DNA of 63,700 bases, filler included, from Dugesia japonica (lineage: Eukaryota): the NCBI GenBank assembly GCA_001938525.1. It is 4 parts of 4 records of this genome, joined end to end, with 100 filler letters (N's around TTAATTAATTAA, not from the genome) between each part and the next. Parts side by side here need not be neighbours in the genome. Positions count along the whole stretch, not along the records: positions 46,859 to 63,700 come from MQRL01599911.1; 3 more parts are not named here. One strand, written 5' to 3'. Position 1 is the stretch's first letter; every line of letters starts with the position of its first letter. The position numbers were made by a program, and so were the translations under genes. Shown in pieces: positions 2,749-63,700 of the stretch. The notes under the pieces are model-generated. The model was not told the DNA's origin, made no database searches, and was given only the letters and a program-made list of their open reading frames with translations.

Positions 2749-3380
2749 TTATCACAAATTCAATAATAAAAAAATTATGTTTAACCGTACAGTTTTCGAA
2801 ATTATGTTCAATTTAAAACTCTAATTAAAACTCAAATATGTATTTAAAATTTATCTTTATTTTCATAATGAGGTCATTATTGTATACATTGCTTGTCGAG
2901 TAATTTTTTAATAACTACTACAATTTGAATAATTTTTTTAATGTTTTTGTGAATTGTTTATGTAATCGTAAACATTCAGTAGAAATTCATGATTCTTCGT
3001 CTGTTTTTTATTGCTAAAATGTGATAGTATGTATTCATGTTCATATTTAACATTAACTAATTTTTTATTTTCGTGCTAGATTTTTTTAGTTTTTAAAATA
3101 CGATTGTGAAAATTAAAATTATGTATATCAATTGTTACATTTTAAAAGTATTTATAATTAATTGTGTCGACAAGTTTTTATTTCAAAATTTTCCATTTAA
3201 CACATTTTTTCAAATTTAATGCCTATCTCAAATAATAAATCTTTGAATTAAGAAAAACATTAAATCCTTTGCGTTCCACTATCCAGTGATACTGGACATC
3301 GCATTTCGGTGGAATAGATTCCACTGGACAGATTTCATTGACATACTTAAAAGGGTTTATCTTCCAGATTTTTTAGGGGG

Positions 3381-4733: not shown

Positions 4734-4734
4734 C

Positions 4735-5538: not shown

Positions 5539-5989
5539 ATTCTTAATTTTTATTTTATATACATGTAGATTAATTTTAAAAAAGGCTTACTTTTTAGAAT
5601 ATTTAAAACAAAATATTTTAATTAATGTTGATTGATAATAAAGATATTATGTATAATAAATACATTGCAACAGATTTGATATAAATTACTGATATTGTTA
5701 TTGGTATTTGTGTTATATTGATAGTTAAGTTATAATTATTTGTAAAAACTATTCGTGTTTTTAAAGTCTTGATAGGCATGTATTTTTGAAACGAAATCAT
5801 TTTGAAAAGATAATAAATATTTATATGTATAAAAATCCAAGGAATTTTTTTCCCTCATGTTTACCAAGTAAACATTAAAAAAAAATTTTTTTGTCCTTGT
5901 TTTTGAATAGGTAGAATTATACATATTGTCAATAAGGATGAAGTAGTCGAAGACTATTCGTTAAAACTGAACGTAATAATGTCAGATCC

Positions 5990-6150
5990 ACCAAATAAAT
6001 TTAAAAATTGTATCGCCTGCTCAAATCAAAATATGGTTGGTGGATAAAAAAGAAAAACAATATTTTTGTGAAACCTGTCCGACGAAATCTGCAATTCACG
6101 AAGGAAACTGTTTTTAAAGATACCATATGTTGACTACTTTTAAATTATAA
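5990..6150 (+). mobile_element. piggyBac transposase C-terminal cysteine-rich domain remnant
   Basis: KNCIACSNQ...RKTI/FCETCPTKSAIHEGNCFKRYH (one frameshift, one stop) fits the PGBD-type CxxC..CxxC..H..CF..YH tail. Confidence 0.7.
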
Positions 6151-7480
6151 TTTGTTTTCATAAGAAAATATTGTTTACTACAATTGTTTTTNNNTTCATT
6201 TATTCAAATTGATTTATTTTGTTCTTAAAATTAATTTGAACTGGCTACCGACACTCTAATAAACTCAGTAGACTGATAAGTGTGAAAATATCAATTTCTA
6301 GTAATTGATAATTACAGATTTTCTAATTTTATATCTATATTTTAATGTCATCAATTAACGAAATCATTAAACTATACTGTTTAGGATGTTGACCACAAGA
6401 TACTTATGAGTTTACTTCATATTTTGTACATCGTTCTTAGGTATTTTCCGGTTATAAGTCGTGTTTGAATGATTTTCAGACTTTGACATTTTAATAATTA
6501 TTAAAACTTCGTAAGATTAAAAAATGCGTTCAAGTTTGTTTTATTCATTTCAACTTATTAAAAACAAAATTAAATTGATAATTGTTTATTACTTTCAATT
6601 TTTTTTATATTGAAAAAAAAAATTGAAAAATTTTATCGTGTGGTACAAAAATACATATCTTGTGAAAACGTTATCTGTGTAGAGTATGACTAGTATGACT
6701 TAAACTTTTGTAAAATAGCAAATGAGGTGGCGACACATCAAGTATATTGAATTAATGACAATTGGTTTCAAAATGACATTATTTTTACAGGCTCATCGTG
6801 TTGNNNNNNNNNNNNNNNNNNNNNNNNNNNNNNNNNNNNNNNNNNNNNNNNNNNNNNNNNNNNNNNNNNNNNNNNNNNNNNNNNNNNNNNNNNNNNNNNN
6901 NNNNNNNNNNNNNNNNNNGAACCATAGCATCATTAAGCTTATTTTTCGATAATGTGTATTGTCCGAAAATTTCATAATTCCTTAAATATAAATTAATATT
7001 TTCTTTATTAATTACTCTTGAATCTGAAAATATCAAAAATATAACAAAATATTAAAATTTTTAAAAATTTTAATTCACATCTAAAGTCTTTAGACAAAAA
7101 ATTATGCATGAAAATGGTGATTAGAACTAATTGCTTATACACGACTTGTAATTATATAGATTTGTGGCAGAATATTAAAATATTTTTTCAACGCTCTTAA
7201 AGTATTATGACGGTAGGTAATATTATGGATAAAACTAGAAGTATTATTTGAAAATAATGTACTTATTTTTTGTTTTGTTGATATTTCATCAAATAAATAT
7301 AATAGTTTATAAACATTATCTTGTTTGTAAGTGGATAAATATTCCATTATAATTGGACAAAATGTTCAGATCATATTGAAATCATAATTTTTTGATTTGT
7401 AAATTAATTTTTACAATTAAAATGGAAATATTTAATATAATTAATAAATATAAAATAAAATAGAGTATTTATATTTATAG

Positions 7481-7580
7481 ACACTCCATTTAATGACTTC
7501 TTCTTTACAATTTAATCGATCCCAATCAATGAATGCTACTTGTCACCATTCATGCGTTGAAAAATATTCCAGATTACATG
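7481..7580 (+). CDS. Next exon of the FRS2/DOK-like gene (TLHLMTSSLQFNRSQSMNATCHHSCVEKYSRLH)
   Basis: TTTATAG acceptor, strong GTAAGT donor, 100 nt open. Phase 0 start matches the exon ending at 1127; phase 1 end matches the exon at 10916. Confidence 0.7.
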
Positions 7581-7659
7581 GTAAGTGATATTTTGTTTAT
7601 CTTGTTTGTTTTGTACAATTTTCTGATTATTTTAATAATTTAGCGTAATTAAAAAAACA

Positions 7660-8255
7660 TTAACATGTTGACTGTAGTGTAGGTCACCGGTGACTGGTAC
7701 TCGACTTGGCTGCTGCGGCGTGGCGCTACCAATAGTAAAATACATTAATATAAATATCGATACTGATAAATTTTTCAATAATACTGTTGTTAATATAATG
7801 GTTTGAAGAAATTAAAATTAATAGAACATATAAAAATAACTTTATTAACACATATAAAATATACATATTATTTGTGCATATTGCGACGAATCACATTGAA
7901 GTACTCTAGGCAAAATATAGGTGAACTAATACAATCGGCATAATGTCACCACTTTTCTAGTAGATTTCTTTACACTTATTTTCCCTAGCTGCTTTGAATT
8001 TTTTTCGTAGTACACTTTGCAAAATTCTCTTACATTTCGTGCTTTTCTGGGTATTTTTTTAAATTCGTAACGTGGTTTTTTCTATAAGCAGTTACTTGAT
8101 TGTTGGTCGTATTGAGAAAGATTAAGTAAACAGGGTAGCTGCTTAGCAACTCGAGCACAACAATTTGAAAGAAATGATAATCTCGAAAATGTCCTACAGC
8201 GCCTCGGAAGTCATCGGTGACTGCCACCACGAAAAATGCATTAAACATGATTAGA
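7660..8255 (-). mobile_element. Internally deleted piggyBac-like element
   Basis: End TTAA-CATGTTGACTG...GTCACCGGTGAC at 7660-7693 with a degenerate inverted counterpart at about 8210-8255. The minus strand reads ARNVREFCKVYYEKNSKQLG...TRKVVT..DCISSPIFCLEYFN, a decayed piggyBac CRD. Confidence 0.6.
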
Positions 8256-10915
8256 CAACTCAACTTATCTGTCGTAAATAATATTTTAACATAATATGCA
8301 TCAAATAATAAAAAATTCATGTTAACGCGATTGGCAAACCACGTAAAATATGCGCGGTAGTCAACGCACAAATCAAAAAAGAGTATAATAAAAAAATGGT
8401 CAAGTAAAAAGCGTGGATCAAAAATTAAAGAAAATCCTTTTTTTAAAGAAAATATATTTAATAATCACTTTAAATTATTATATCTCCGTTGTTAATTATC
8501 AATTTTTAATGATATAATAAAATAAAAGTAACATTTATACACTAATTTGGACACTGAACTTGACAGTAAAATCCTACTTATGACTTTAATCTTTTTTANA
8601 TTACTTAACGCTCTTATCATTTTAGTTGTATCACAACCAATGTTCCCTCTAAGTCGCTCAGTTCCTGTAAAATTTTACAGTAACACTGTCCGGGAAATAC
8701 AAATAAATTTATTATGTTGTTTTCACTTACGCTGATTCTTTTCCTGTGCAGTCAATCAAAAAATAGAAGGAAAATTGATTAAAACTAATGATTCTATTAT
8801 AAAGACGCTATTATATTTAAGTTATTGAAAATCTGCATTTTTGAAGTTTCTTTATAATTGGTTTTGAACTTAAATATGAGGATATCGATTGACAAATAAT
8901 CTTTGAATAAAATGATTTTTTACAAAATCTCTTTAGGAATGTCATGCTCGAAATCCATTTTTCACATTTTGTTTTTAGTTTCAATTGTTTATAGTTGAAT
9001 TGCTCGTTTCTAATTTTTCTATTTGAACTAGAAATTGCTTTCTATCTCAAATAATTTGACGCTTAGAACTTTGTTGTAAGTGCAAAGTTGGACACATTTT
9101 TTACTAGTGATAAATTTGATTTTAGATCTTAATATAGATTTTGATAAATTAAAATTGCTAAAATATTGATTTTAAATCAATTATAAGAATAGTTTTAGAA
9201 TTTTATGCTAAAATATTAATGATTTTTAGAAGACGTATGGATGAAGAATTAATATTTATGTATAATAAACTCCCTAATATCCGCCAAAGTTTAATTTCTG
9301 TAAAGTGGCGGATACGAGAAATCGTTTAGTTGCTCTTGGATCAAAGACAGTAGGATTGATTTCATCAAATTTAATTATTTCTAATTTCTCCTTTATACAT
9401 TATTAAGGCTAAAAAGTTTAATAAGCAGCAATTTATAATTATAACATGTTTTTATTTACTTAGAATGGCGGATATAGGCTTACTGTATTATGAAAANNNN
9501 NNNNNNNNNNNNNNNNNNNNNNNNNNNNNNNNNNNNNNNNNNNNNNNNNNNNNNNNNNNNNNNNNNNNNNNNNNNNNNNNNNNNNNNNNNNNNNNNNNNN
9601 NNNNNNNNNNNNAAATGTATACATTTAAATTGTATACATTTAAAGCGATTTTTTGTAATTATGTGCTATAGATAATAACAATAATTCAGTTACCGAATTC
9701 AATACCAATCTTATTATTCATAATCTATTTTAGTAACTGCACTTCAGTCCATTTTATATTATGATTTTATATGAACTTTATTAATTTGTGGGATGAATTA
9801 ATTTGATATTTTTTTGCAGTTTAAAAATTATGAGAAAGATTTTTATTCAAATAAATATTTTTTTTATAAAAGATTCAGTAATATATTAGAATTTTATTTG
9901 AACGATATTACAAACCATGAAAATTCAAATAACAAAATCGATGAGCTTAAAGCGTTTTTTCTTTTATAATTTTTTAAAGGTTTGTAGTTTAATTATTACT
10001 GTATGTTTTGAAAAGCGAGTTGAAATTTTTGTGCTTTAGTTGGAAATCATTTTCTTAAAATCTTTTTTTTATATTGAAAGTCAGAAATTAATTATGAAAT
10101 TAAATTAAATTTTTTGTATAAAAATTGTGAATAGTTTAAGGATTATTTTAAATATTTTTATACACACACACTTTTAGAATTTTAAATAAGATTTTAATAA
10201 CAAATGATTTTTTTATTTAAATATTTCGAAAAGAATTTGAAATGAAATTTTGAATACAAATTATTATTTTATTTGAATTTTTGGAGAAATTTTAAATGAG
10301 ATTTTGATTATTTTATTGGAATTTTCAAAATTATTTTGAATGAAAATTTAATCTAAAATTTTAAATTTATTGAAAAATGATTCCGAAATTAAAGCAGTGT
10401 TTTAATTTGTTTGAATAAACAAATAGTGGTGGATATATTTTTGTTTTGTGAATAAATCTTTTCTGGAAACGAGTTTTGTTATTAATTACCCGANNNNNNN
10501 NNNNNNNNNNNNNNNNNNNNNNNNNNNNNNNNNNNNNNNNNNNNNNNNNNNNNNNNNNNNNNNTTTTTTCTTCATTTATATCTTTTCATCACTGCATTGC
10601 GTTACTCAATTTTCTCTTTATAAAGTCTTTTATTACAAGTTACGTTTTTTAAAAATTACTTCTCAAAATCTTAGTTCAAGTTTTAGTTCACTTAACTAAA
10701 ATTATATTTAAGATTTTCTCTATAGTTAGATTGTTAAGAACATGTAATTTCAAATACAGCATTTCATAGGCTTACAATTGTAATGTTTCTACTTATTTAT
10801 TTTTATATAAATAGTTCATAAAATTTAATTTCAATCAAAAATTTATTTTCTTTAAATTAAACATACCGTATCACAATTAATTAAACCCTAAACGTTAAAC
10901 CTCATTTATTTTCAG

Positions 10916-11193
10916 ATTTTTCAGCGATGCCTAATTTTAGAAATCGAGATGATGTTAGTGATTTAACATCAAGTGAATCTACAGTCAGTAGTGGAACTAT
11001 GAATGTTTCTAATATCTTGTCTTTAAATCATGAAAATTACTTGACGGAAGTAACCAATATTTCAATCCCTGGTTCTGGCGGAGAGTACCTTGTTGCTGCT
11101 AATGTTCCAATTGCCCACGGTTATGTTAATCAGCATAATTCAAATAATTCAGAAAATATTGTTCAACAAACGCCAAATTACATTAATGAAATG
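10916..11193 (+). CDS. Exon of the FRS2/DOK-like gene: Ser/Asn-rich tail with YVN and YIN (Grb2-SH2-type YxN) motifs
   Basis: TTATTTTCAG acceptor, GTTAGA donor at 11194. The split codon G|AT gives Asp in frame with ORF 10927-11211. HGYVNQ and PNYINE resemble the tyrosine docking motifs of FRS2 tails. Confidence 0.72.
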
Positions 11194-11423
11194 GTTAGAG
11201 TATACTATTAATTTTATTTAATTATTTATTACATATAAATTAAATATAGTATCAAATTTTTCCAAAATTAGGTCCAGTGTTTGTATTCGGATTTCTGGAA
11301 AATACATAACTATTTTCCATATTTTGTCAAAATAAATAATAAATAATAAAAAATATTCTGTCAATATAATAAAGACAAACAAGCCTTTTTGAAACTTTGT
11401 GTATTTTCCAAGTGCAGTAAAGT

Positions 11424-11682
11424 AGTAGATGGATAGTAGCGCACGGAAACACCCCCCAGGGAAAAAAATTTTTTCGGCCGATTTTTTCATTTTTTTCAAA
11501 ATGAGGTGAAATTATTTATTTTGTTTAAATGAAGTAAATTAATTTTACTCAATCTGAACAAAAACAATTAATTTAACTTAATTTAAACAAAATAAATAAT
11601 TTCACCTCATTTAAACAAAAAAATTGGCCAAAAAAATAAATTTTTCCTGGGGGGTGTTCGCGTACGCTACTATTTATCTACT
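11424..11682. mobile_element. Foldback MITE, probably Mutator-like
   Basis: Almost the whole 259 bp is an imperfect palindrome (AGTAGATGGATAGTAGCG...CGCTACTATTTATCTACT; TGAGGTGAAATTATTTATTTTGTTTAAAT and its reverse complement). Flanks CAGTAAAGT / CAGTAAAAC form a 7/9 candidate 9-bp TSD. Confidence 0.75.
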
Positions 11683-12002
11683 CAGTAAAACTTCGAATTT
11701 TCGCCAACTTCAATTTTACCAGCAATATTCTAAAATCTCAAAATATAATACAAAACAAACAAACGTGAAAAGGCCGTAAAATTTACACCATAAAATAGAA
11801 AGAAAAAATAAGTTTTTCAGGCATTAAGTTTTGTTTTTCTTTTGAGAAAACTAGAAAGCTAAATGTGTTGTTATTTTCATTTAAATGTAAATTTCTCAAT
11901 ATATTACCATATAAAATTAGACTTGGGTTTATAAAGGTGATTTATGTCTAATTATCTTTTAGGGTCCTATTCTGAATATTGTTGGTGTTAGATGAATTTG
12001 TA

Positions 12003-12102
12003 NNNNNNNNNNNNNNNNNNNNNNNNNNNNNNNNNNNNNNNNNNNNTTAATTAATTAANNNNNNNNNNNNNNNNNNNNNNNNNNNNNNNNNNNNNNNNNN
12101 NN
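12003..12102. other. Artificial 100-nt scaffold spacer (44N-TTAATTAATTAA-44N)
   Basis: Identical structure occurs three times; the 12-mer is a palindromic all-frame stop linker. Confidence 0.95.
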
Positions 12103-13296
12103 TAATATTATTAATAATATAATTAATATAATATTATAATATAATATAATATATAATATTAATTAATATAATATAAAAATATAATTAATATTATTGATAT
12201 TATTATAAATTCTATGCATTATTAATATTTATTGTTACCATCTTTATTATTATTTCATAATGTAAATGAAAATTATATTAAATCGCATATTTTTATTTAA
12301 TTTTATANNNNNNNNNNNNNNNNNNNNNNNNNNNNNNNNNNNNNNAAAAAAAATACTATATAAAAAGTTTTAAAATTTTTCGTAATCAATATTCATAATT
12401 AATAAATAATTCATTAAACGTTAAATATTTGTAACAACTAAACTGATACTGTATTCGGTATTCTCCACTCAAAAGAATTGTTACTTCACAATTATAAATT
12501 TGTTTACATTTTTCTCTACCTATAATTTATTACTATATCAACTTTTTAATCAATATTTAATTTAAAACTTTTAATAAATAGGGAATAAAATTTTTGCAAA
12601 TTAACATAACCTCTGCCGATAAGTAATGAGAACATATTTTTATTTATAATTTAATAATTATCATTAATTATTATTTCTCTTTTATTATTTATTGAACATT
12701 TTTTTATTTTTTATTTCTCAAATATATTTTTTTATTTTATTTTATTTTTTATTCATGATTTCTTCATCATTACGATTAAGTCTTTTTTTTCAGTATTCGA
12801 TTGTCAAATATAAATTTTTGGTGTACATTTGATACTTTTTTGATTAGTGGGTTCCATTAAAAATTCTATTTGAAATAATACTTTCTTCCTAGTCTTATTA
12901 TTTAAACAAGAAGAAATCTAATCGCGTATTGTTGCCTTTTAATTGTCCATTTGTGTGAATATTTAATAACAATATTATATTTAAATGCCATTTTCATAAT
13001 GAATATAGATCAGAACATTTTTATTAATTATATTTCGTGCATTAAATTTTAATATTCAGTCATTAGGGATAAATGTTGTGATAATATTTTCATTAGAAGT
13101 AGTACCGAATTGATCAATTATGGCTAGAATACACTTTTATCACTTATTGTAATTTGAAATGGTCTATAAATATCGATATTAATACTTTTTAAAGTTTCTT
13201 TTGCATTAATCTTTGAATGAAATTTTTTCATTTTTGAATTAAATGGTTTTTGGTTTCGACAAAATTCTACACTTTCCTTTATTATATCTTTGAAAT

Positions 13297-13815
13297 ATTA
13301 GGTTGTCCAGAAAATTCTTACTGTTTTTTACTATGAAATAAAAAGCAGTTTCTAAACAAAGAAAGGTTTTATTCAGTAACCTTATGGACATTATTATTAA
13401 CAATTTTTTGATATATTTCTGCCTATATTATGATTTTCTTAACAAAAAATTTCTGATTTTGTTCAGGAAAAAATACTTTCAGGTGCGTTTTGATATTGTC
13501 TTCTGAGGTAAAAGATTTTCTCTGACATAGATATTTGGAGATAGCAAAATAGATAGAACTCTGATGGTACCATATCAGTACTATGTGATGGGTCTTGCAG
13601 CAAAACCTAGCGAAGTTCCAGTAATTTTTCTCGAATCTTGAAAGATATGTGAAGTTTTACGATTTTGTGATATAAAACAATATCTTCGCAAGTTTCTTTT
13701 TTTGTACATTTCTCCTGCAAGGAAAATTTTTAATTTGTTTAATTGGTGACAGTAAGCATTTGATTATATTGCAGTTTTAACTGGTAAGAGTTCAAAATAT
13801 ATAATACTCTTATAA
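13297..13815 (-). mobile_element. 3' half of a decayed mariner element
   Basis: Terminal TATTAGGTTGTCCAGAAAA TIR-like end. The minus strand gives PSHSTDMVPSEFYLFCYLQ, a decayed HPPYSPDLAPSDYHLF motif. Confidence 0.7.
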
Positions 13816-43857: not shown

Positions 43858-46700
43858 TATGAAGAAATTGCTACGTATTCTGAATTAAGCAGTGGGTGGA
43901 AGATCAATCATAGTGATTGTCCGTAGAAATCTGAATGCTACCTAAATGAGCAGTTACCATGAGCAGAAGATGCCGATGAAGATCATTAATATTCCGGAGT
44001 TTGAAAGGAGAAACGATTTGTCTATTACAGTATTTAAATATAAAGATTTGGCGGATTATGAAGATGATGCGTTTTTGTATAAGCATTCCCTTGTGGATGT
44101 AATTTTCCGCTAAATAAACCCGAACGGGCGCATTTTCAATTTACATAATTTGGAAAATTAACAAAACTTTCATTACACAGCTGTGGTAAATTTAGACCGT
44201 TTATTAAATTTACAAGATCAGACTCTGAAATACTGAATCCAATGTAAATGGTGTCCTAAATATCTTCACGGATTCGAAACACAATCTACATTTGATAAAC
44301 ACGTAGCTTTATGTTCCATAATCACAGAAAAACCACCTCGTATACAATGTCTGAAGACATGGAATTGCGGTATAAGTACTTTAAAAAAACAATAACACCA
44401 GTGTTTGTTATTTTTGCCGATATTGAAGCGACACTGATCCAAGAAGATGATGGCCGAGTAAAACATGTTCCATCAGCTGTACGGTTTTTGTTAATTCTCA
44501 TATTAAATACTACGAAAAAAAGCAAATATTATTTTTTTTATGGAGAAAATTTTATGGTTGAGTTTCTCCAGTGCATCGATCAATTGACAAAAAATGTGGT
44601 TGCACCATGTTACAAGATAAATATGAGAATGGAAATGAATTTTTCAACATCAGAAAAGGAGGCATATTTAAATAGTACACATTGTTACATGTGTGAGAAG
44701 GAAAATGTAAAACTAGTTCGAGATCATGACCATTTCTCCGGAAAATATCTTGGAGATGCAGGCAATCAGTGCAACTTATCTCGGAAGATCAGAATAGAGT
44801 TTCCAGTGTTATTTCATAACTTTAAGGGTTATGATTCGAATCACATTATCAAACATGCCTTTAATCAGTTCCGTCATTGGAATGTCAAGCTCATTGCACA
44901 GACAACAGAACATTGTCTTGCTAGGTTTGTACATTTTTGTGGAAATATTACAGTGCGAGTAATAGATTCATACCAATTCCTAAGCAGTTCATTGGAGTCA
45001 TTGACTGCAACACTTAAGAAATGTCCATTGAATGCATCAGAATTTCGGGAATATGAACACCAGAGTAAGAGTATATTTCCTTACAAATTCGCAACACCAT
45101 ACCAAATGCTGTTTAATCAAATACGTCTACCTCCACAATGGCTAGAGATAACAGAATCTGAATATGAAATTGCAAAGTTGGCATGGATGGAATCTGAAAG
45201 CAATAATCTGCTGGAGTATATGGTACATTACATGAAGCTAGACATTTATGTGTTAGCTGATGTGTTTGAAATATTTAGAAAACAGACACTTGAAGAGCAT
45301 GGACTTGAGCCGCTTAGATTTGTTTCCTTGCCAGGAATAAGCTGGTCAAGTGCTCTCAAGGCGATGGATAGGCCGTGGAAATTGCTCCAGTATCCAGAAA
45401 TACATCGGCTATTTGAGACGGGAATTTGTGTGGGTATGACATTTGTCAATACTCATTACGTTCAGGCAGATGAGGATACCTCACTGCTTTACATTGATGT
45501 AAATAATTTATATGGNNNNNNNNNNNNNNNNNNNNNNNNATATAAAGATTTTCAATTTGTAGATGATATAAAAGAAACATATCAAAATATATTGAATGAT
45601 TAAAATAATGATAATATTAGATACTTGCTGGAAATTGATCTGGAAATACATATTAAACATCATGATAAGTTGGATCAATTGTCTTTAGCACCAGAACACA
45701 AATGTCCACTGGGGTCTCGAGTAAAGAAGCATTTAGTTACACATGAGCCGAAACATCATTATGTAATTTATTGGAGATTACTTAAATTATATATAAAGCT
45801 AAGAGATCAGGTAACAGCTGTTCACATGATAATCAGATTCCAGGAGACGTTAATTTTCGTTAACTATATCAATGCAAATTCAGAAAAAATCAGCATCGCA
45901 TAAAAAATTTGAAAAGGATTTTTATAAATTGTTGAACAATGCACTCTATGGAAAGACGGTGGAGAATCCGAAGAAAAGAATGAATCTCCGGCTGTAAAAC
46001 AACGAGAAGAAGTTTGTAACTTAAACGAGCAAAGTTACATTCAAGAAAACGGTTAACATTACTGAATGACTGAAAGCTGTTTTGTTGGATAAAGACAATA
46101 TTTTCTTAAATTTTCTGAGTTATATTGGTCAGGTAGTGCTGGATTTAAGCAAACTGAGAATGTAACAGCTTTAATAGGAAGAGTTGGAAGAGTTACGCCA
46201 TCAGTTTAAGTATACAATCGATATTGTTGCTTTTCCTTGCATGCTCTGGGGTGGATAAAAATAAGCTTTTATCAGATATGAAATCATATGGTCTGTTAGA
46301 CACTAGTAATTATCAAAAGAATCATCTACTATATTCGAGTAAAGTAGCCAACAAGATAGGTCTATTTAAAGATTAAAAGCAAGCATAAAACTATACCGAG
46401 TGAAAAGTTTTACGTTCAAAGTGCTACAGCTTTAAGAAAGTAGATGGTAGTGCATCAATGAAGGCAAAGAAAATCAGTTGAAAACAAACTGATATTCAAC
46501 ATTAAAATTACTTGGATCCGTATAATAATGAAAATGGTGTAGCAGAAATTAAAGTCAATCAAAGCAGTTTCCGATCAATCAAACATCAATTATTTACGGT
46601 GGAAAGTAAGAAAATTTCGTTATCATGTCTGGATGACAAACGCTTTTGGAGCAAAAAGAATAAGAGTATGGTCAATAACCTTTTTGAAATTATTAATTAA
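43858..46700 (+). pseudogene. Protein-primed family B DNA polymerase (Polinton/Maverick/adintovirus type) with endonuclease VII-like insert
   Basis: SGW N-terminal motif, exonuclease FADIEA / FHNFKGYD / IDSYQFL, CYMC..VRDHDH..G.YLG..CNL (EndoVII-like), KSIFPY, YIDVNNLY, KLLNNALYGKT, LDTSNY, GLFKD, DDKR. The 3' half is broken by stops and frameshifts, and the YxDTDS motif is not recognisable. Confidence 0.92.
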
Positions 46701-48559: not shown

Positions 48560-49486
48560 ACTGATGCGCCACTATCTACCTACTCTCACATCCTTCTTTT
48601 TTCACCATGAAGAAAGCGTTTTTCGGTAATTATTCTTTAGACAATGTACAGACAGTTTTTAATTTTACGATCAATGATATCATTTTCAAGTTGAAAAATT
48701 CAAAGCTACGCTCCTAAAGTCAAATTTCTTAAAATGTCAAATATTTCAAACCTGAACCATTTTCTCTGATGACAATGGATATATGAAATGTAGACAATTA
48801 AATTTTCTACCTTTTGCGTATGAGTCTTTTGGGGTCATTTTTCAAAATGGCGGAGATAGACCGCTTTCAAATCTTCAAGGGGTAATATGTGTGCCACTAA
48901 CACACAAATCGAAAATTTGGAGATGACAGAAGTTTTTAAAATTAAATTCTACATCTATATGTTTAAAGTTGAATTTCCTACTACCTTTCCTTCGACGGCT
49001 AGGGGGGAAAGGGGCTGATGCGCCACAACCCTTATATTCGAAACGAAGCACTTTTCGATAGTAGTCCTTTAGGTAATGTATAGGTACTTTTTAATTTTAG
49101 GAAGAATGGAATTAGTCTTGACTCGAAAAATTTAAAAATCTTAAATTTGAAAAATCTGTTTACGTTGACGTGTCACTAAATTTTCAACGCAATAATCAGA
49201 TTTTTCATCACTTTACAATTCTAATTATACCAAATTTTACTTAATTAAAACAAAAATTACGACAAAAATTAAATTTTAAAAAATATTTTAAAAAAAAAAT
49301 AATAAAAAAGATAAAAATAAAAAGTAAAAAAATGTTCAGCCCAAAATTTTCTCTGCCCAGGGGGGGAGGGGTGGGCTGATGCGCCACTATCTACGTAAAA
49401 AAATGTTCAGCCCAAAAAATCTTCAGCCTAAAATTTTCTCTGCCCATGGGGGGAGGGGGTGGGCTGATGCGCCACTACCTACTTAC
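48560..49486. repeat. Non-autonomous DNA-transposon-like repeat with four copies of CTGATGCGCCAC and a tandemly duplicated G-rich terminus
   Basis: Motif at about 48561, 49015, 49376 and 49464; 49326-49396 is repeated at 49397-49481. GCGCCACTATCTACCTACTC resembles the end of the MITE at 11424-11682. Confidence 0.65.
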
Positions 49487-52400: not shown

Positions 52401-53580
52401 AGCTAGCAAATTTGTCAACATTTAAATAATTTAGNNNNNNNNNNNNNNNNNNNNNNNNNNNNNNNNNNNNNNNNNNNNNNNNNNNNNNNNNNNNNNNNNN
52501 NNNNNNNNNAAATTATTTTATGGAGATTGAAACTGAACCCAATAACCTAGCGACAGCTAACATGGTGACCACTATCACAGATTTATTAATTAGCAAATTA
52601 TTACCTGAGAGATTATACAGAGGGAATAACCTAGAAGAATTCATTACAGATTGCCAACGATTTTTCAATGTCACAAATACAAATCTGAAGATGCAAAAAA
52701 TTTCGGTAACTACCTTGTAGAATAAAGCATTATTGGAAGAATACAAAACAGCAGAAGCAAAATAGTTTGAAGAAAAGCTCAGAAATGCCTTCCAAAAACC
52801 AAGTTCCTTAATAGAAGATCTGAAAAAGGCTTTAAGTTATGAACAAGGCAACGATTTGGCAGAGATATTCATCGATAAAATCAAAAAATTGACAAAAAAG
52901 TTAATTATTCATAAATGAGACGAAAAAGAAATAGAAAAATGCTTATTAATGCATTGTATTAGAGATAAAGATGTAAAAAAAGAAATAGAAATGCGAGAAT
53001 TAAGAACATCAGAACAAATCAGATCGACAATTAAGAAAGTTGAAAAGGTAAATAAAGCAATTGGTCATATCAATGTTCTCAGAACCTCAACAACAAAGAT
53101 TGTTCGAAGTTATAGAGACGTGGTACAGAAGGGACAGTTGAGAAATGTAAATATGAAAATAAATAAATATAATGAAAATAGACGAGTTCCAGTTTGTTGG
53201 ACTTGTTAAAAACCAGGGCATATAAACATAGATTGCCAAACGAAAAGAAGTATTCAATGCTAGGCATGTAGAGCATTAGGACCCATGCGCAGAAAATGCC
53301 CAACAATTCAGTGTGGAAGATGTCTTTTGCAGGGAAATAAAACAACAGAATCCTCAACAAATTTAGAAAGAAGACAGAAAGCGAGAATAGTTAATAATAT
53401 AAATTATAAGAGACGTGATAATTTCAGAAATCAGAGTAATGAGACTAGAGATTTCATAAACAGAGATCGACAAAGGAACATACAAAATCAAAAAATGATA
53501 GCAGCAATTGGTTTTAATGGAGATACATCAGTAGAAGAACAAAACAATGAACTAACTGGGGAATATAAAGCAGTAGAGTA

Positions 53581-53623
53581 CCCAAAAGGTTGTGCTCCTT
53601 CCAGAGAGGCAATGGTCGGAGCA
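53581..53623 (+). promoter_or_regulatory. Candidate -1 ribosomal frameshift signal at the gag/pol junction
   Basis: C CCA AAA heptamer in the gag frame, 5-nt spacer, TGCTCC..CCA-loop-TGG..GGAGCA hairpin. Equivalent signal at 39083-39041 (-). Confidence 0.65.
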
Positions 53624-53649
53624 ATTTATTAGGTAATTTTGATGACATT

Positions 53650-54390
53650 TTTTTGATAATGACATTGGCTATAATAATGTAAATAAAATAGAGTATTTTA
53701 ATGTAAATAATAGTAATATTAAAAGTTCATCTATTTATAAATTATGTAATATGTATAGCAATAATTTTTGTAATTCTAAATATGATAATTATCTTGTCAA
53801 TAATAATGATGACAACAATAATGAACAAAATAAAACGTTAGATGATAATGAGTATATTGATTGGAGAGTCACAGAAAAGATTTAAGTTTATTAAGAAAGA
53901 TTTTGATGTAAATGAAAATGAAATAATAGAAGGTACAGATGATTATATCGATCAACAAAGTTTAACTATAGATGCAAGGAAACGACCAAGAATAACCTAT
54001 AATAAAATGCAAGACAGACCAAGTATAACGATAAGTATCCAGGGTCGTGAGATGGAGTGTCTATTAGATACAGGTACTCGAGTTAATGTATTATCAAAAA
54101 CAATAGTAGATAAATTANNNNNNNNNNNNNNNNNNNNNNNNNNNNNNNNNNNNNNNNNNNNNNNNNNTTGATAATGACATTGGCTATAATAATGTAAATA
54201 AAATAGAGTATTTTAATGTAAATAATAGTAATATTAAAAGTTCATCTATTTATAAATTATGTAATATGTATAGCAATAATTTTTGTAATTCTAAATATGA
54301 TAATTATCTTGTCAATAATAATGATGACAACAATAATGAACAAAATAAAACGTTAGATGATAATGAGTATATTGATTGGAGAGTCACAGA
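53650..54390. repeat. About 220-bp exact duplication across gaps (53652-53874 vs 54168-54390); assembly overlap
   Basis: Identical sequence; the second copy is bounded by N runs on both sides. Confidence 0.9.
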
Positions 54391-57300
54391 NNNNNNNNNN
54401 NNNNNNNNNNNNNNNNNNNNNNNNNNNNNNNNNNNNNNNNNNNNNNNNNNNNNNNNNNNNNNNNNNNNNNNNNNNNNNNNNNNNNNNNNNNNNNNNNNNN
54501 NNNNNNNNNNNNNNNNNNNNNNNNNNNNNNNNNNNNNNNNNNNNNNNNNNNNNNNNNNNNNNNNNNNNNNNNNNNNNNNNNNNNNNNNNNNNNNNNNNNN
54601 NNNNNNNNNNNNNNNNNNNNNNNNNNNNNNNNNAAGATGTAGAAATAATTAAAACCAATGAATTATTAAGAAGTGCAAATGATAGTAAATTAGAAACTAT
54701 GGGTAAAATTGATATTAATGTCAAATTAGGAAATTAAAAGAAGAAAATAACATTTATAGTGGTAAAAAAATATTATCCCGGATATTATTGGTGGTATTGA
54801 GTTTCAAAATCAATTTGGTATAGAACGGACATGGATAGAGAAAATAAAAGAAAGAACAGAATATTTTATATGTGATATGGAAGCAAAATATAGCAGAAAA
54901 ATCATAGATGATGAAAGCTTACGATGTGCAATAGAAATTTTGAAATTGAGCAAAAATAATAGAATAATTGAAATCGCGCAAAGAAATAAAAATGTCTTGA
55001 TGACAGACAAGTGGGATATTGGGTGCACGGCTTTAATTGAACACATAATTAAAACGAATGGAGGGCTGATAAATATAAAATCAAGAAGGCAGCCTGTAAA
55101 TTTAGAAGGAAAAATAAATGAAGCTATAAAAAATTTAGAGGACAATGATATAATCAGGAGATGCAATTCACCTTGGAATACACTTTTGGTATGTGTATGG
55201 AAAAAAAAGAAAAGAAAGATAATGATTGTGTCTAGATTTTAAATAATTGAATGAAATTACGGAAAGACAAGCATTCCCTATGCCAAATGTCTAAAAGATT
55301 TTGGATACATTACATGGTTCTAAATATTTAGCACTATCCATCTAGGCAACGCTTATTACCAAGTAAGATGTGATAAAGAATCGCAAGAAAAAACGGCTTT
55401 TTCCACAAAGGAGGGTCTATTTTGTTTTAATAGAATGCCATTTGGCGTTGCGGCAGCTTCTGGAACATTCCAAGAATTGATGAATAAGATAATAAAAGAG
55501 ATGTGGAAGGATAGAGTAATAGTATATTTAGATGACATTGGGATTTTTACCGATTCTATGGAAACACACTATATTATATTGGAAAAGGTTTTGAAGACAA
55601 TTAAAGACGCAGGATTAAACATTAATCCAGAAAAATGCCAACTGTTAAAAAAAGAAGTTAAGTTTTTAGGTTTTATTATAAATGATAAAGATATTCAAAC
55701 ATATCCGGGCAAAATAGAAATTATCCAATCATTTCAAAGACCAAATGCGTAAAAAACTTGAGGAGTTTCTTAGTCATATATAATTATTATCGAAGGTTTA
55801 TTAGAGATTATGCAAAGAAATCAAATCCATTAGAAGCTATGTGTGGGGAAAATAATTCAAAATTGATATGGTCTGATTTGTGTGAAAAAGCATTCGAAGA
55901 AATAAAATTAGCATTAAAAAGCTCTCCAATATTGAAATTCGCAGATTTCCGAATAGAATTTTTACTCGACACCAATGCAAGTTTTGATACCATTGAAGCG
56001 GTATTATCTCAAAAAGATGAATACAGACATGAACGTGTAATATCATATAGATCTCATTCCATGAATGGTCATGAACGGGGTTACTGTATTACTAGAAAAG
56101 AATGGTTGGCGATCTACTATTTCTGTCGGCATTTGAATCACTACTTGTATGGTAAACACAAAGATTATAAAACGATTGCATTCATGCTTACTACTTAAAA
56201 ACCAAAAATAGCACAATTTCAAACATGGATCAATTATTTGAGTAGCCTGGATATTAAGATGGAATTTAGAAAAGATACAGGACATGGTAATGCAGAGATG
56301 CTTTCAAGAAATATATGCGGAACATGCGTACAATGTCTAATGGATCATAATAAACCAAAAGTAGGGCAATTAAAAACGAGACTATTAACTATCATGGCGG
56401 AAGATAATCGTAAAAATTAGAAAACTAATTCCAAAGAAATACCGAAAATAATTGAGGAGTTTAATAGACAGGAGACTGCTAAATTTATTGTTGAAAATGG
56501 CATTGTTTACACAAAGCATAACAAGATATGGGTTGCATCGTGCAATAAACAAGAAATGATTAAAAAGACTCATGTCTTACTGTGTCATGCAGGAGCAGAA
56601 AAAACAATGGAATATATTAAAAATAATTTCGATATGAAAGATTTGGTTGCTGAAGTAAAATGAATTATATCAGAATGTGATCAATGTCAAAAGACAAAGA
56701 TAGTAACGACAAAAGTAAAAGAAGACACCAAAGTAGTAGTGGCAAATGAACCGTTAGAGAAAATATACATGGATATATGTGGACCGTGGAAAGAAACACT
56801 AAAACAAGAGAGATATATTTGTGAAATGATTGACCACTACAGTAAATATATAGTATTGACTGCTATAAATAAACAAGATGAAAAGACAATAGTCAAAGTT
56901 TTACTGAATAATTGGATACTAAAATTTGGGCATCCGAAGGAATTACACGTAGATTGTAGGAAAAGCTTTGAAGCAAAGAGTGTAAAGGAAGTGACAAGTT
57001 CAGCTGGAATTGAGCATATATTCTCTAGTCCATACCATCACAATACCAATGGCATGGTAGAAAGACAGTTTCGAACCATAAGAAAATACATAAATGCATC
57101 ATTAAAAAATAGAGTCAATACGAATTGGGCAGATATATTACCAGAAATTGAGTACACCTTGAATTTGAAAACTCAGAAAACCAATGAAGTAAGCCCAGCA
57201 GAAATTGTATTTGGAAGAAAAATAAATAGATTAAAATAGTTTAGTAACAGCAAAGTAGATAGAGAAGCAATGATGATGAAAATTGAAACACAGAATAAGG

Positions 57301-58129
57301 AAGATAACATAAGAACAGCACAGAATTTGAATGTAGGAGACGATGTTCTAACTAAACAAGAAATACGTAATAAAGATCAAGATATATATGAAGGACCATG
57401 TACGCCCATCAAGAAAATACATGAAAGAAGTTATTTACTAAGAGATGTTACAGGGAAAACAGTGATTAGAAATATAGAGAAGATTAAAGATATTAAGTAA
57501 TAAAAGATTTAAAACTCAATTAACTTAGCGACAGCTAACAGTACTCATCAAGGTAGAAACCAGAAATAAATGCCAAAACAGATTTGAAGGACTTTATCGA
57601 ATAATTGAGAAAATTTACGAAAGACGGTATGCGGTCCAAGAAGAAAATTGACAGCGATTAGAAAGAAATGTGTAAAAACTAAGAAAGTTTCTTAAGAAGG
57701 GAGATTTAAGGAAATAATTATAAATTAATAATTAATTCAGCCAATAAAAATTGATTATATTGTAGATAAATATTTTTAGGGTTCTATTCTTATGTAACTA
57801 TAAAATTAAGATAGCGTTGTGAAGTGAAATAAATTATGTCTAAAAATCGTTGTGAATTTTGAAAATGAATAAGAATTGAAGAATTATCTAATAATATATA
57901 TTTATTTTTCTTAAATATTTTAATAATTGTTTCAGTAAACTAATTAGATATTATTTAATCTTGTTCACCCGCTCCCTCCTTCATTTAGTTGACATAATTA
58001 ATGGATTAAAAATATAATTGATAAAACTAATTTAATTAATCAAAAGCTAACTTCCGAAGGCTTCAATACAGAAATTTGATTAACTTATTGCAAACGAGAA
58101 ATATCTATAATCAAATATTAACATACTAC

Positions 58130-58455
58130 CGGTGGCGTAGTGAGCATAACTGGAGCCCGTAGAACAATACTCTTTGACTCTCCCACCTTCCAAAAACCCG
58201 AAAAACATAAAGTAATTTAATATATAGCAGTGATTCTTAAACTTTATCGATCGTAACCCCTTGCCAAAAAATTATTAAAACTATTTAAAATTACAAAAAA
58301 ATAAAATAACTCTTACAAGTGCAGATTAACTATGGTAGATGTCAAGTAGGAAAATATTAAGCCGTAATTAATTAATTAAGTTTAAAAAACTTTTTTGGAC
58401 GTAGAAAATTTATCATGCATTTTGGCATCATAGACCCCTTCTCGCTACGCCCCTG
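58130..58455. mobile_element. hAT-type MITE (326 bp)
   Basis: TIRs CGGTGGCGTAGTGAG / CTCGCTACGCCCCTG; 8-bp flanks CATACTAC / CATGCTAC (7/8). Confidence 0.85.
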
Positions 58456-59689
58456 CATGCTACCAATTAATTAAACAATTTTTAAAACCACACAAAATTC
58501 AAACAACTTTGTAAAAACTATATTTAATTAGAAATTACATGAGCAATATAATTAAATAAAAATATTGTACATTAAAATAAACATTGTAACACTTTATTTT
58601 AAGAATTACCACAAAACTTAAAATACTTATCGTTGTTATTTACAAAGGGTTTTTCATCAAAATCAAAATTCAGTATCAAAACATATAATACAAATTGAAA
58701 AATTTTATTTTAATAACGATAAATAAATTTATTATTATCTAATATTTTAATATATTTCACAAAATCTTCTTACTAAATGTAATTGTCTGATTTTTCATTT
58801 GTAGCAGTGCATAAAATATTTTTTAATACGATTCTATCATTAAATATTCTAAGGAATCACTTTATTTAGAAAATTTTAAAAAAAATTTTAAAAGCAGTTC
58901 TAGAAATTTATTTTTAAAGAAAATTGCCGACTTATAGTTTCTTAAGCAAAATTATTATTATTGATATTATTGTTTGATGAAATTGAAGTACTCATAGAAT
59001 CGTCAATATCAAAACTTAATTACATAGAAAATTTATTCACAAAACAAAACTATAAATATGAATTTGCTTTTATCAAATAAATTTAAAATTTAAATTCTAA
59101 AACGGAAAATATCAAATATTAGTATTATGAAAAATGTTTTAAAATTTAATCAATGTCAAATTTAAAAATACATTTTATATATTTTATCTTATTTAATATT
59201 TTTCAAAATTTTACTAATGTCAAATTTAAAATTACAGTAAATATTTAACAAAAACTGATTTTAATAAATTCCGCCTCAAAATACAAAAAATTAAAATCTG
59301 CTTTTAAAATCTTACAATTATTATAATTATTATTGTTGGGGTTCCACCTGAGTTAATGCGGATGAGAAACGCTGGCCAGGGAAAAAACGGCCCTCAAGGG
59401 ATACCCTTCAAGAATTTAAATCTAATGTCCCTAGATTAGATATTCAGTGCAAAGCNGTTGACCTCTAACCCTTACTTGGNTTCGTATTCATTTCTCTATT
59501 ACTGTAGTCATCAAATAAATAAGCAAAATGTTAATATTAATATGTATTAGTTTATAAATTACACCTTAAAGAAACATCATTAAATAAATTATTTCTCTTA
59601 AAATAGAGGAAATATTAATTAAGTAAACAATTCGGAAGGAAGAATTTAATTAAGAAAAGATCATCATTTATTTATGAAACCAACAGATA

Positions 59690-60651
59690 TTAAGATCGTG
59701 ATGTCTGATTACCCTTATCAACCATTAAAGGTTCGAGGGGCATCGCTGCTTTTAGTTTTAAAATATCGTGGACCAGTTTATTCTCTCGGTCTTGGTATGA
59801 CCGGATGACCTCGGTGAAAAACTCTATTTGAGCATTCCATACTCTCTCCTGGGTATGTGACACTTCAACCTCCTTCCTAAATGCGGCGCATTTGGTCTTA
59901 TCTCGCTTTACTTTTGCCTCCGCCAAAGCAGTATCGACCTCCTACCGTCCCTTGGCAAGGCGATATAGGTCCCAGGTCATCTCCTGGTTCTCGCTAGTCT
60001 CACGCACTTTCTTAGTTAGTGCTGAGATTCTAGTTAATGAAGAATGCACTGAAAGGAGAGATATTATTAAATTATTGATAGATAGTGGAAAATCGTTTAA
60101 AACGAGTTTCATATAAAACATATAACGAATGTTATGCAAATTAACTCGTGCGAAAAATCAGATTAAGAAGTAGTTATAAACAATCACGATCCCTAGTTTT
60201 TATTAACATTAAATTTGACGACACGAACCATCATCGACAATCAAGAGTTATTGTTTTCTACAACATCAGCATATTCTTTATGAGCACCCGGTGCTGCATT
60301 ACGTAGGTCCCATAACGTGTCACCAATGAATGCGCTCAAAATAGAGAAGGATGGAAGATGAGCCGCTGAGACTGGGATCATTGATAGGCATTCCCTCCAA
60401 TCCCTGATAGTACTAAACTCCTCATTTTGAATTGGGGGAAAAGTGGGACCAATATGGGCCTGTTTATTCATAGTAGGCTCTCTGCTCGGCCGCGTCCCAT
60501 TCTCTTTCATTCTTCGCGTCTTCCTTTGACAAGTCAGTGTAGTCTGTGAACACCCCAGCGTTACGGTCATGGGGGTTTTATATCTTTTAAAAATCAACCG
60601 GCCGGTACGCCGATAATAAAGGGTTTCCCATTTATAGTCCATCTCACAATC
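59690..60651 (-). pseudogene. Two exons (60651-60229, 60048-59690) of an unknown helical/coiled-coil protein; further probable exons at about 60800-61230
   Basis: TTACAG and CTCCTTTCAG acceptors, GTTCGT donor. The last exon is 119 codons in one frame with a single TAG (59942-59944), with AATAAA about 20 nt after the stop. The penultimate exon needs at least one frameshift. Confidence 0.6.
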
Positions 60652-62639
60652 CTGTAATGTTATCAAATATAAAATATCATTAAGAAAAAGAAGTATTTGT
60701 TTAATGTAACCCTTATCAGCATGAACACGCAGAAGCCTTTAATTATTTTTTATTTAAATAAACACATAAATCAGATGTTTTTAATTAAGTTGGTTTGGTT
60801 TCTTTATCCAGATCCACGTCAAACTTTAGCGGGAACAACTTGGCGAAACATTGTTAGTCTGTTTTGTCCGAATGTTCAACCTTACCACGAGACAAGATGT
60901 GAGCCACTAATTGTCTCAAACGGCTGTTCTACGTTGCCTCCGAATCAGTTTGAGGGTATTTCGTAACTTGGTTGACATTTTCTACAATTAAGATATAGAT
61001 TAAGGCCTACCTAATTTCAGGATTACTCGGCGTGAGATGCAATATCGGCAAAAAGATACTATGCGTGAATAACCGGTGCTTGCATTATAATAATTAGTAA
61101 GTCAAAATAATAAACCGGTTGTTATATAATTTTAATTGGGAGATGTATATCATTTATGTGCAACCCGTTAACTTGCTGAGGTTAGGAGGATTACTGATGA
61201 TAATACTAATGAACCGATCTGGCCATGATGTTATAATAATAAACTTAACAGGTTAATTATATTATCATTATTAAAAATGGAAATATTAATAACAAACGAT
61301 TATAATAATAAATGAATAAATACCTATTTGAATTTAAATAAACGACGATTGAGTGACCGATTTGTACTCGCGATAAATAATAATAATCAATATTGAGATA
61401 ATAGATTCATAGTAGGGACATTTTATTTAATGGACATTAACACAATCCCACTAATAGGTAGGGGAGCCTTGACTTTAATGTTTATTTATTGAGATCCAAT
61501 GACTGGTTGTAATCTCATCGAGTAAAAGTTTCCACAGTTCCGACGAAACTGACTTATCGATCATCAAAGTGTCGCTGTAACGTTAATGAACTAATTATTT
61601 TCCTGGGCAACGAAATCAAATTCCTTCATAGATAAACCTTCCAGCTACATAAAGATGGTTTTCTGGTTTCAAGTATATAATACGACTGACAGAGACCGTT
61701 TTTAGACTATTTTTTCCAGACTGTATTTTCCAGTATATTAAATTATAGAAATGTGCCATAATATTGCAACTGGATGAATTCTAACGTTATTCATTAAATG
61801 ACCAGAATCAAACTTAATATAAATGATTCTTTTCTTTTTTCTATCGAAACATACTCATCGAAAATTTTGCATAAGCTATTGGTTCTGTGTATTAATAACG
61901 TATCTTTATTTTTTCCTTTTGCAATTCTTATGGCTAAATAGAGTGAGTCAGAGTTTATTATCGCTTGCGTATGTGTGCCGACAGGTCACACAATTATTAG
62001 TCAACGCATTTATCTATTTTGGATTGTCATCATGTGTTTAGAGTAGAAGTTGTTGTTATCGAACGATGAGATATGTTAGAGTATTACTGAACTAGCTAGT
62101 TGGCATATTCTATTAGTTGAGTGTAATGAGTGCTTGATAATTTATCCAAATTTAGTAACAAATATTGATGAGAAATCTAACAACAACTGCTGGTTTTTGT
62201 CTAAATTAACGAATGCAGGTATTTATAGTACAGATAAATTAACTATTAGAGTAATAAATAGCAACCCAAACATTTTATTAATCACATAAAAGCCAAGCCT
62301 CTCCTATCCATAATATGGACAAAATTTGTTATCAATCATATGAATTTTGCAATTACAGACATAAATATAATAAATAATTACTTTAATTTGGGTAAAGAGA
62401 TTCTGTCACAACAGGGAACTGATCAAACGAATAACACTTATTTTCTTCCAAATTGAGAGGTTTCAAACGACACTATCTTTTTTCTGGTTATCAAAATAAT
62501 TTTCTTCTGCAGGTGAAAATACACTGATTAATAAATGTAAGTTAAAATCGTGATCTTACAATGATTGATTAACGGATTAGTTTCGCACAGATATTTCCTT
62601 GAAATGATAATCGTTTTACGTATAGGTATACGAACGCAA

Positions 62640-62860
62640 GTTTATTAATTGACTGATGTTTTTATTATATTTTTGTCTGAATTTTGAAGCCCTTTTATAG
62701 CTTTCAAAATGCAACCCGGCATGATCCTCATTGNNNNNNNNNNNNNNNNNNNNNNNNNNNNNNNNNNNNNNNNNNNNNNNNNNTTTATTATATTTTTGTC
62801 TGAATTTTGAAGCCCTTTTATAGCTTTCAAAATGCAACCCGGCATGATCCTCATTGGCCG
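62640..62860 (-). promoter_or_regulatory. Pol II promoter-like array: GGCCAATG, CTATAAAAGGG, TCAGT, AATAAA
   Basis: CCAAT at 62857-62853, TATAAAA at 62822-62816 (duplicated at 62699-62693 across a 50-N gap), TCAGT at about 62656, AATAAA at 62646-62641. Confidence 0.55.
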
Positions 62861-63700
62861 GCTAATTTTATTTCAAATTTTTGTAATTTCATTGGTGTTG
62901 ACCTGAATTTCCAAGAATTTTTCATCGTTTTCTGTTAATCTATTGGTGCCTATTTTTGGAGCACCTTGTGACTTTCTTGACTTTGCTCTATTTTTCTTTT
63001 CTGGTCCCTCATTGTAGGGGCTTCCCTGATGATCCCACGATTTTCAGGTTACTAAATCCTATTGCCCCAGATCTTTTTCTTTCTAGATTTTTTTGCTAAG
63101 AGTTTCTGCGATTATCCTGAGCAGAGATATTCATAGAAAACTGATTTTCGGCTAATTTAAATTTATTTTATTTCAAAATTAATTAATATTTTTCCGATAA
63201 TTAATTTTTTCTCCGTAATACTTTTCTTGCCTTTTATTACTAATTTTATAATTTTTTTTGATTATTGTAATTGATGTGGGCCAGATTTGTTGACTCAAGG
63301 TCTTCATATCCATGTTCTTTGTATTTTGATCTTTTATTCCTTATAATTTATCTATGCTGACTTTTTCTTAATTATTTTTCTTGGGGCTTCGATGTATTTT
63401 TTATAACTCTTCAGTCGAAACTATGTGGTTCTTGATTGACCTTCTTTCCGGACCCCCTTTCTCCATCATTTCTTCGTCTTGGGACCTTGGCTTTGTTTTT
63501 TCTCTACAGACCGGGTGTTTTACCTCAACATTATTATTGGGGCGAAACGCCCAGAGGAACGATAATCAAGGTTAAAAGAGGTCACGAATGAACAATACCC
63601 AATTAAAGAACCAGAAGAAAGCCAGAATAGAAAATCCAGACAATAATATTAAATAGAAAACCTAGAAGATCAAATTCAATGTGATTAATTATAGTAATCA

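Follow-up and report, generated by a model that had tools for sequence, protein, structure and literature searches.

A 63,700-nt stretch of the Dugesia japonica genome (assembly GCA_001938525.1; hereafter the window, to whose positions all coordinates refer) contains a unit that, on balance, is probably the silent and decayed solo long terminal repeat (LTR) of a Burro-like giant Ty3/gypsy element, with an array of micro open reading frames (ORFs) borne by the LTR itself. Its identity as a solo LTR is likely, and neither a primer-binding site (PBS), a polypurine tract (PPT) nor gag-pol adjoins this copy. In favour of this reading, the unit possesses no transposase and no long terminal inverted repeat (TIR), and two of its reading frames, ORFs C and D, exceed the length predicted from base composition. 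The framework of the unit comprises the following features.

59334 to 63530, minus strand: the whole TG...CA-bounded element, a probable solo LTR of about 4.08 kb once a gap artefact is subtracted.
63522 to 63530, minus strand: 5' terminal 9-mer TGTTGAGGT.
59334 to 59342, plus strand: 3' terminal inverted 9-mer TGTTGGGGT, 8/9 identical to the opposite end.
59330 to 59333, unstranded: left TTAT, a weak candidate target-site duplication (TSD) within a TTA tract.
63531 to 63534, unstranded: right TTAT, candidate TSD.
62661 to 62856, unstranded: 73-bp exact duplicate around a 50-N gap, an assembly artefact by a joint in the DNA runs X1 and X3.
62860 to 63530, minus strand: purine-rich U3-like segment (0.60–0.71 purine per 100 nt).
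62650 to 62857, minus strand: promoter-like motifs, as motifs only (CCAAT 62857, CTATAAAA 62823, TCAGT 62656).
62382 to 62506, minus strand: predicted candidate non-coding leader exon, with a pyrimidine tract, a TGCAG acceptor and an A before GTAATT.
59667 to 59672, minus strand: AATAAA, 17 nt past the last stop and the last of 19.
59334 to 59455, minus strand: GC-rich (0.45) U5-like end, very widely common to relatives.

The ends of the unit read TGTTG...CAACA, with TGTTGGGGT at 59334 on the plus strand, TGTTGAGGT at 63530 on the minus strand and TTAT flanking each side; the coordinates of these inverted ends hold as an earlier description from the DNA alone (the sequence-only reading) had given them. 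The length of 4197 bp given there is corrected to about 4.08 kb, because the 73 bp of 62661–62733 recur exactly at 62784–62856 around the 50-N gap, both DNA runs (X1 and X3) join 62663 to 62792 with 10 letters between, and the duplicate is an artefact of assembly. The terminal 9-mer occurs three times in the window vs 0.42 expected, a count reached by 2/100 shuffles, and its third occurrence falls within a decayed gag. The inverted repeat does not extend far, its identity falling from 8/9 through 10/18 to 13/30; the arm pair is absent from the 25 longest inverted repeats and the ends form no extended TIR. As regards the flanking TTAT, two random 4-mers from the window agree with P 0.009.

Short TG...CA ends would also befit a non-autonomous, gene-carrying DNA element moved by a DDE integrase or transposase encoded elsewhere, in the manner of Ginger, an origin that we consider unlikely. 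The promoter, introns and polyA signal would then be those of the cargo genes: a promoter at one end and a polyA signal at the other are expected of any gene-carrying DNA element, both ends of the unit are conserved across many relatives, its intron-like spacers are kept with no intron-less copy among 15 DNA joints, and the problem of a 3-kb R region, to which we return below, would not arise. Ginger1 and Ginger2 have TG...CA ends, a 4–5 bp TSD, introns and TIRs of 40 bp or more; the unit differs in lacking a long TIR, with an inverted repeat that drops to 13/30, and an integrase-like transposase. Pfam recovered no family in 12/12 read-through frames (pieces 59334–59480 and 62733–62783 lying outside the scan), and thus neither a DDE transposase ORF nor a transposase remnant, in agreement with the earlier statement that no gag, pol or transposase motif lies inside. 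TGTTG...CAACA is, moreover, the classic Ty1/Ty3-type LTR end. This end type speaks against a DNA element, as do the multi-kb LTRs known in the group from the available portion of PMC6431247. The TG...CA ends are out of keeping with a Penelope-like pseudo-LTR. The terminal segment 59334–59455 shows no unusual RNA fold (z -0.87), terminal RNA folds being no better than those of shuffles, and a search of Rfam gave a single chance match (mir-723) and no hammerhead, although minimal hammerheads can escape detection.

Copies were assessed in the contigs of public runs (24 runs listed, 13 with part of the stretch, 6 studies), the best-matching of which may itself be the source. Contigs matching 59481–63700 numbered 2135 of 10.2 million in X1 and 2314 of 10.0 million in X3; 30/30 bins of that span were covered in both DNA runs, and approximately 72–74% of the contigs were 85–95% alike. 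The expectation that the unit is multi-copy is thereby borne out, with more than 2,100 contigs per DNA run. Summed bin depth, which is no copy number, was mostly 50–400 in the interior (X1) vs about 9–12 for the near-identical contigs on unique flank. It reached 12,984 and 31,678 in the bin with 59759–59806 (inside ORF D), 2300–4800 in the bins with 62942–62985 and 63193–63210, where loose ends occur at 62975 and 63210, and 4,600–22,700 in the 3' end bins, the first of which is partly inflated by the adjoining repeat. The interior is common to far fewer relatives than are the ends and a few short blocks.

At the right end, one of the 16 listed pieces (X3 contig 16) covers 63357–63534, past which come 26 letters that no longer match; at the left end, 29 X2 contigs come loose before 59317, 17 nt outside the end and with low agreement (0.61), and 28 X1 contigs match only up to 59354. 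Such loose or unlike contig ends imply that other copies have other AT-rich flanks and that more distant families share the terminus. Dispersed copies whose homology stops at the ends are thus present; the sequence-only reading had anticipated sharply conserved ends and a different TSD in each copy. Other flanks are seen, none of them as a pair around a second copy, and 17 nt of TTA tract make the exact left boundary indistinct. The unit's two neighbours are repeats in their own right. The unit might in principle consist of ordinary host-gene exons or of a chance mosaic of repeats, in keeping with its low-complexity TSD and the lack of a protein family match. This highly improbable account is largely refuted by diverged copies over all 30 bins, distinct repeats on each side and the absence of polyA RNA in the runs described below, and by the rest of the window being transposon debris. 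What the sequence-only reading stood to lose by, a single-copy unit or a host gene, is not what was found: the unit is multi-copy and has separate flanking repeats.

The left neighbour (58971–59316) is a 346-bp TG...CA repeat with ATTAT on each side and bins up to 25,600 deep, behind whose position 59309 some 100 contigs per DNA run come loose; it probably represents a small solo LTR that shares the TTA tract with the unit. The right neighbour (63535–63700; depth 1139 and 1327) begins 4 nt past the unit, and its first 18 nt hold a GGGCG-AAA-CGCCC hairpin and are 13/18 like the unit start. A related head-to-head element from 63535 onward finds no support, since 13/18 is also reached at two other places in the window and the alignments fail vs shuffles (140 and 59 of 300). 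Three DNA joints (60735–63067, 61394–63166 and 61400–62622) skip 1.2–2.3 kb in both runs at low depth, two of them with short shared letters at the joint, and are probably internally deleted copies. Scans for the end pattern returned 0, 6 and 8 loci, all 14 of them chance matches of at most 24 nt.

Within the unit, four GC-rich blocks (0.41–0.52 per 100 nt) are separated by AT-rich spacers (0.20–0.28). The principal reading frames are as follows.

60785 to 60978, minus strand: ORF A, with an ATG 3 nt past an acceptor-like AG (60981) and its own stop at 60785.
60464 to 60642, minus strand: ORF B, with an ATG 9 nt past a CAG acceptor-like site (60652).
60241 to 60471, minus strand: ORF C, an intact 76-aa orphan with 0 stops vs 4.2 expected (P 0.009, uncorrected for frame choice).
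59690 to 60048, minus strand: ORF D, a TG right after a strong acceptor and a 118-codon charged, helix-predicted frame.

ORFs A, B and C are each delimited by a separate ATG and stop, and A, B and D are broken in this copy. ORF A consists of a basic 20-codon start, a frame break near 60920 and a 44-codon frame with one in-frame stop; the latter holds an H-I-x6-EH-x-D-x-T-D-x-x-C-x3-L-x-PL micro-protein motif with 9/12 fixed residues; elsewhere in the six frames of the window the best score is 6/12, as it is among 100 shuffles. ORF B has a basic first part, a break near 60577 and an acidic 37-codon second part, and its TAA overlaps the ATG of ORF C (ATGAATAA), a layout that is that of calicivirus stop-start reinitiation. 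In ORF D there is one in-frame stop vs 6.95 expected (P 0.006, likewise uncorrected for the choice of frame). Judged by their composition, the basic starts of ORFs A and B (7 K/R in 20 and in 22 residues, respectively) suggest nucleic-acid binding, and other copies carry indels near the frame breaks of both (12/42 rows shown). Five of 13 donor-like GTs are preceded by an A, including those at 62382, 62088 and 61855; a splice-made ATG for ORF D is possible, with no enrichment over the AT-rich background. Short ORFs at 61759 (47 codons) and 61564 (29 codons) may belong to the same row in decayed form, and a comparison of the ORFs found no paralogy at E below 0.05.

A row of small ORFs, A to D, fits these data better than one spliced gene. 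The sequence-only reading had proposed the latter, a solo LTR with one multi-exon gene. On this view the extra stops and starts would be due to decay, and a partial form of it would make ORFs C and D the two exons of a protein of about 200 aa; we regard this as quite unlikely. AG/GT-bounded blocks do exist, and C is separated from D by an AT-rich spacer of 180 nt, with a donor-like GTTCGT (60229/60228) on its C side and a strong acceptor (60049) on its D side, in a copy that is demonstrably broken elsewhere. On the other hand, most of the blocks are individual ORFs, each with an ATG and a stop to itself, and three of the four are broken. The supposed donor GTAAGG at 60886/60885 is crossed by the ORF A motif, about 59 of whose 75 nt lie behind it, so the GT at 60885 is not an obligatory donor; the join 60229/60048, for its part, falls 12 nt behind the ORF C stop and out of frame with C here. 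The single gene draws some support from GLT2 of Schmidtea mediterranea, which is transcribed on loss of SMEDWI-2 (PMC8532177): on its reverse strand, the GLT2 probe shows by eye an open GC-rich block, an AT-rich spacer, an AG followed by TG and a charged helical frame like that of ORF D. A faint FR-[KR]-[ED]-[VI]-x-x-[SC]-H likeness between GLT2 and ORF D, seen by eye and not computed, is too short for homology, and the available portion of PMC8532177 gives no description of the structure or class of GLT2. Given this layout, Repbase may already list the unit's family under a name.

The ORF products have no match in Pfam, in 5.8 billion clustered proteins or in 1.84 billion representatives. On seven pieces, Pfam gave only two coiled-coil families, both below the cut-off, and nothing for the ORF A motif frame or for ORF C; a word-indexed protein search retained 0/73 candidates for the longer form of ORF D and 0/2 for its near form and offered no candidate for ORF C, and phmmer with ORF D vs the 1.84 billion representatives returned 0. 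A viral fold search with ORF C gave 0/16 matches at E 0.001 or better. The heptad periodicity of ORF D is weak, and we therefore label it a long charged helix rather than a proven coiled coil.

The purine-rich first 0.7 kb, the CCAAT, the TATA motif CTATAAAA, the stop at 59690 and the AATAAA at 59672 are all present as the sequence-only reading listed them, and a bounded, mobile TG...CA unit whose promoter motifs and polyA motif lie near opposite ends is supported. A further copy of CTATAAAA at 62700 is a product of the gap artefact, and AATAAA occurs 19 times on the minus strand of the unit. The motifs stand in the sequence order of U3, R and U5, with an R that would measure about 3 kb and with no RNA start or end seen in the two runs below. 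The opposite, antisense arrangement, in which the plus strand would be the genomic RNA and the small ORFs would lie antisense in U3, their introns thereby preserved, would account for the retention of introns. It could also draw on RNA reads of relatives on both strands near 62865–63005 and on a TGG 7 nt past the plus-strand end, and is nonetheless very improbable. The A-rich strand and the order CCAAT-TATA favour the minus strand; in the ordinary Gypsy of the window, CCAAT and then CTATAAAA likewise follow the integrase. The sequence beyond 63530 belongs to a repeat of its own with greater depth, and another copy ceases to match after 63534; by eye, and compared with known tRNA ends, no tRNA match is evident.

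Two blocks of the purine-rich segment, 62942–62985 and 63193–63210, are common to very many diverged relatives, attract a few RNA reads and are candidate conserved cis elements. Acceptor-like sites at 59501 and 59347 (minus strand) lie behind the polyA motif, the latter 14 nt before the element end.

Several observations weigh against a solo LTR with a micro-ORF array, among them the RNA. Two oligo-dT runs from two studies, about a quarter of each being read (13.6 and 11.6 million records), yielded 45 and 6 reads, none of which lies fully on the unit; splice joints and piles of starts or ends are absent, and the junction 60229/60048, put forward by the sequence-only reading as a test, is spanned by no read. 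The reads are concentrated at short shared blocks and consequently come from diverged relatives; at 59622–59903 most first mates are on the plus strand, which in most stranded libraries denotes minus-strand RNA. A third run, compared on 57300–59455 only, has no depth in 59244–59455. This copy and its close family are silent in the RNA samples tested, and the earlier proposal that each solo LTR is an expression cassette finds no support in this copy, with its three broken ORFs and no spanning reads. The available portion of PMC8532177 describes planarian Gypsy elements as PIWI-silenced, which the silence of the unit fits.

The remaining counterpoints concern structure. The 17-nt TTA tract on the left has TTAT as 4/14 of its four-mers, and the TSD is consequently weak and of low complexity; TTAT does lie on both sides as the sequence-only reading stated, and its weakness is as that reading itself cautioned. 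No link of the unit to a PBS, a PPT, a second LTR or gag-pol could be made, and tblastx of the unit vs the rest of the window was blank. The splice sites are consensus matches made by eye, and among the 15 listed DNA joints none has intron ends, and these joints reveal no intron-less copy. Length alone does not make ORFs A and B significant (P 0.16–0.31 for their four pieces, with 0.16 and 0.18 for the two of ORF B), and single-sequence folds are helical with low confidence (predicted local distance difference test 59 for ORF C and 64 for ORF D). A start near 62660 and a polyA site near 59650 would, finally, imply an R region of about 3 kb and a polyA site upstream of gag, an arrangement that is awkward for strong-stop transfer and for read-through into gag and that presents this reading with its chief difficulty.

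The origin and former workings of the probable solo LTR, which we infer with regard to its LTR identity, its splicing, the function of its proteins and the route of its silencing, may have been as follows. An integrase would have put the giant Ty3/gypsy parent into the TTA tract, recombination between its LTRs would have left a solo copy, and this would then have decayed, its silence probably due to the PIWI pathway. In intact relatives, a promoter belonging to the element would start transcription near 62660, and alternative splicing of a short leader exon to different acceptors would yield separate messages: one for ORF A, one for ORF B together with C by stop-start reinitiation, and one for ORF D, whose start would possibly be formed by splicing. 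All messages would end at the AATAAA near 59670. The products may be small regulators of the element's RNA or transcription, akin to the accessory proteins of complex retroviruses, and the acceptor-like sites 59501 and 59347 could, speculatively, let the full element splice past the AATAAA.

The proposition that a planarian retroelement superfamily of very high copy number has made its LTR a self-contained polycistronic cassette, in which a promoter and a shared leader serve orphan micro-proteins via alternative acceptors, a splice-assembled start and reinitiation, is a tentative and somewhat doubtful one. If it were true, each solo LTR would be a movable unit for the expression of several proteins, and the full element would reach gag by splicing that bypasses the LTR polyA site; there would also be candidate causes for the cell-identity defects on planarian PIWI loss. 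Solo LTRs are usually treated as non-coding promoter scars, and an LTR that carries proteins would be a coding layer missed by annotation. A concrete question that follows is by what route a retroelement with a 3-kb R region would replicate.

Small ORFs that lie within or overlap the LTR and are spliced from a shared leader, as proposed for the unit, are familiar among retroviral accessory genes, namely sag of mouse mammary tumour virus, nef, tat and rev of human immunodeficiency virus, and tas and bet of foamy viruses. These amount to one ORF per LTR, located in U3, whereas the unit has four or more downstream of its promoter motifs; it is, furthermore, an invertebrate element and shows no sequence likeness to them. 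Among planarian elements the closest comparison is with the Ty3/gypsy element Burro/GYPSM1, with an internal region of up to 25 kb in a total of more than 30 kb (PMC6431247), figures that imply LTRs of several kb; at about 4.08 kb the unit is of this order, and the two further share accessory ORFs and the TG...CA ends expected of the class. In Burro, by contrast, accessory coding resides in the internal region or polyprotein, the available portion of PMC6431247 mentioning no ORFs in the LTR; no gag-env-pol adjoins the present copy, and the likeness to Burro is one of description. Plant Ogre elements, according to the same part of that source, have LTRs of 1.9–6.5 kb and extra ORFs of unknown function (PMC6431247); LTR size and extra ORFs are alike, and the ORFs are internal in Ogre and inside the LTR in the unit.

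We found no description of ORFs inside a planarian LTR in the literature, and Repbase Reports or the supplement of Grohme et al. 2018 could hold one. The accessible parts of PMC11410931, PMC10954484 and bioRxiv 10.64898/2025.12.11.693146 contain nothing on LTR anatomy, and in the accessible part of supplement 1 of PMC13524379 (9 flatworm rows), 6/6 S. mediterranea elements are without LTR coordinates.

The window contains further elements besides the unit and its neighbours. Near-exact tandem duplicates at 23768–25463, 53653–54390 and 49327–49485, at least the second of which adjoins an N-gap, are likely additional assembly artefacts and call for caution over gap-adjacent repeats in this assembly. 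The ordinary Ty3/gypsy referred to above is a decayed element on the plus strand (52549–57900) with a PBS-like site TGGTGACC at 52563, a reverse transcriptase (RVT_1, E 2.7e-28) and an integrase (rve, E 1.4e-14), followed by CCAAT at 57741 and CTATAAAA at 57798; its segment 57516–57731 is extremely abundant. A 434-codon frame at 44299–45603 with DNA_pol_B_2 (E 1.4e-12) is probably a Polinton/Maverick polymerase remnant, and a remnant of a DDE_1 transposase of the pogo/Tigger type (E 7.1e-09) is found at 20492–20896.

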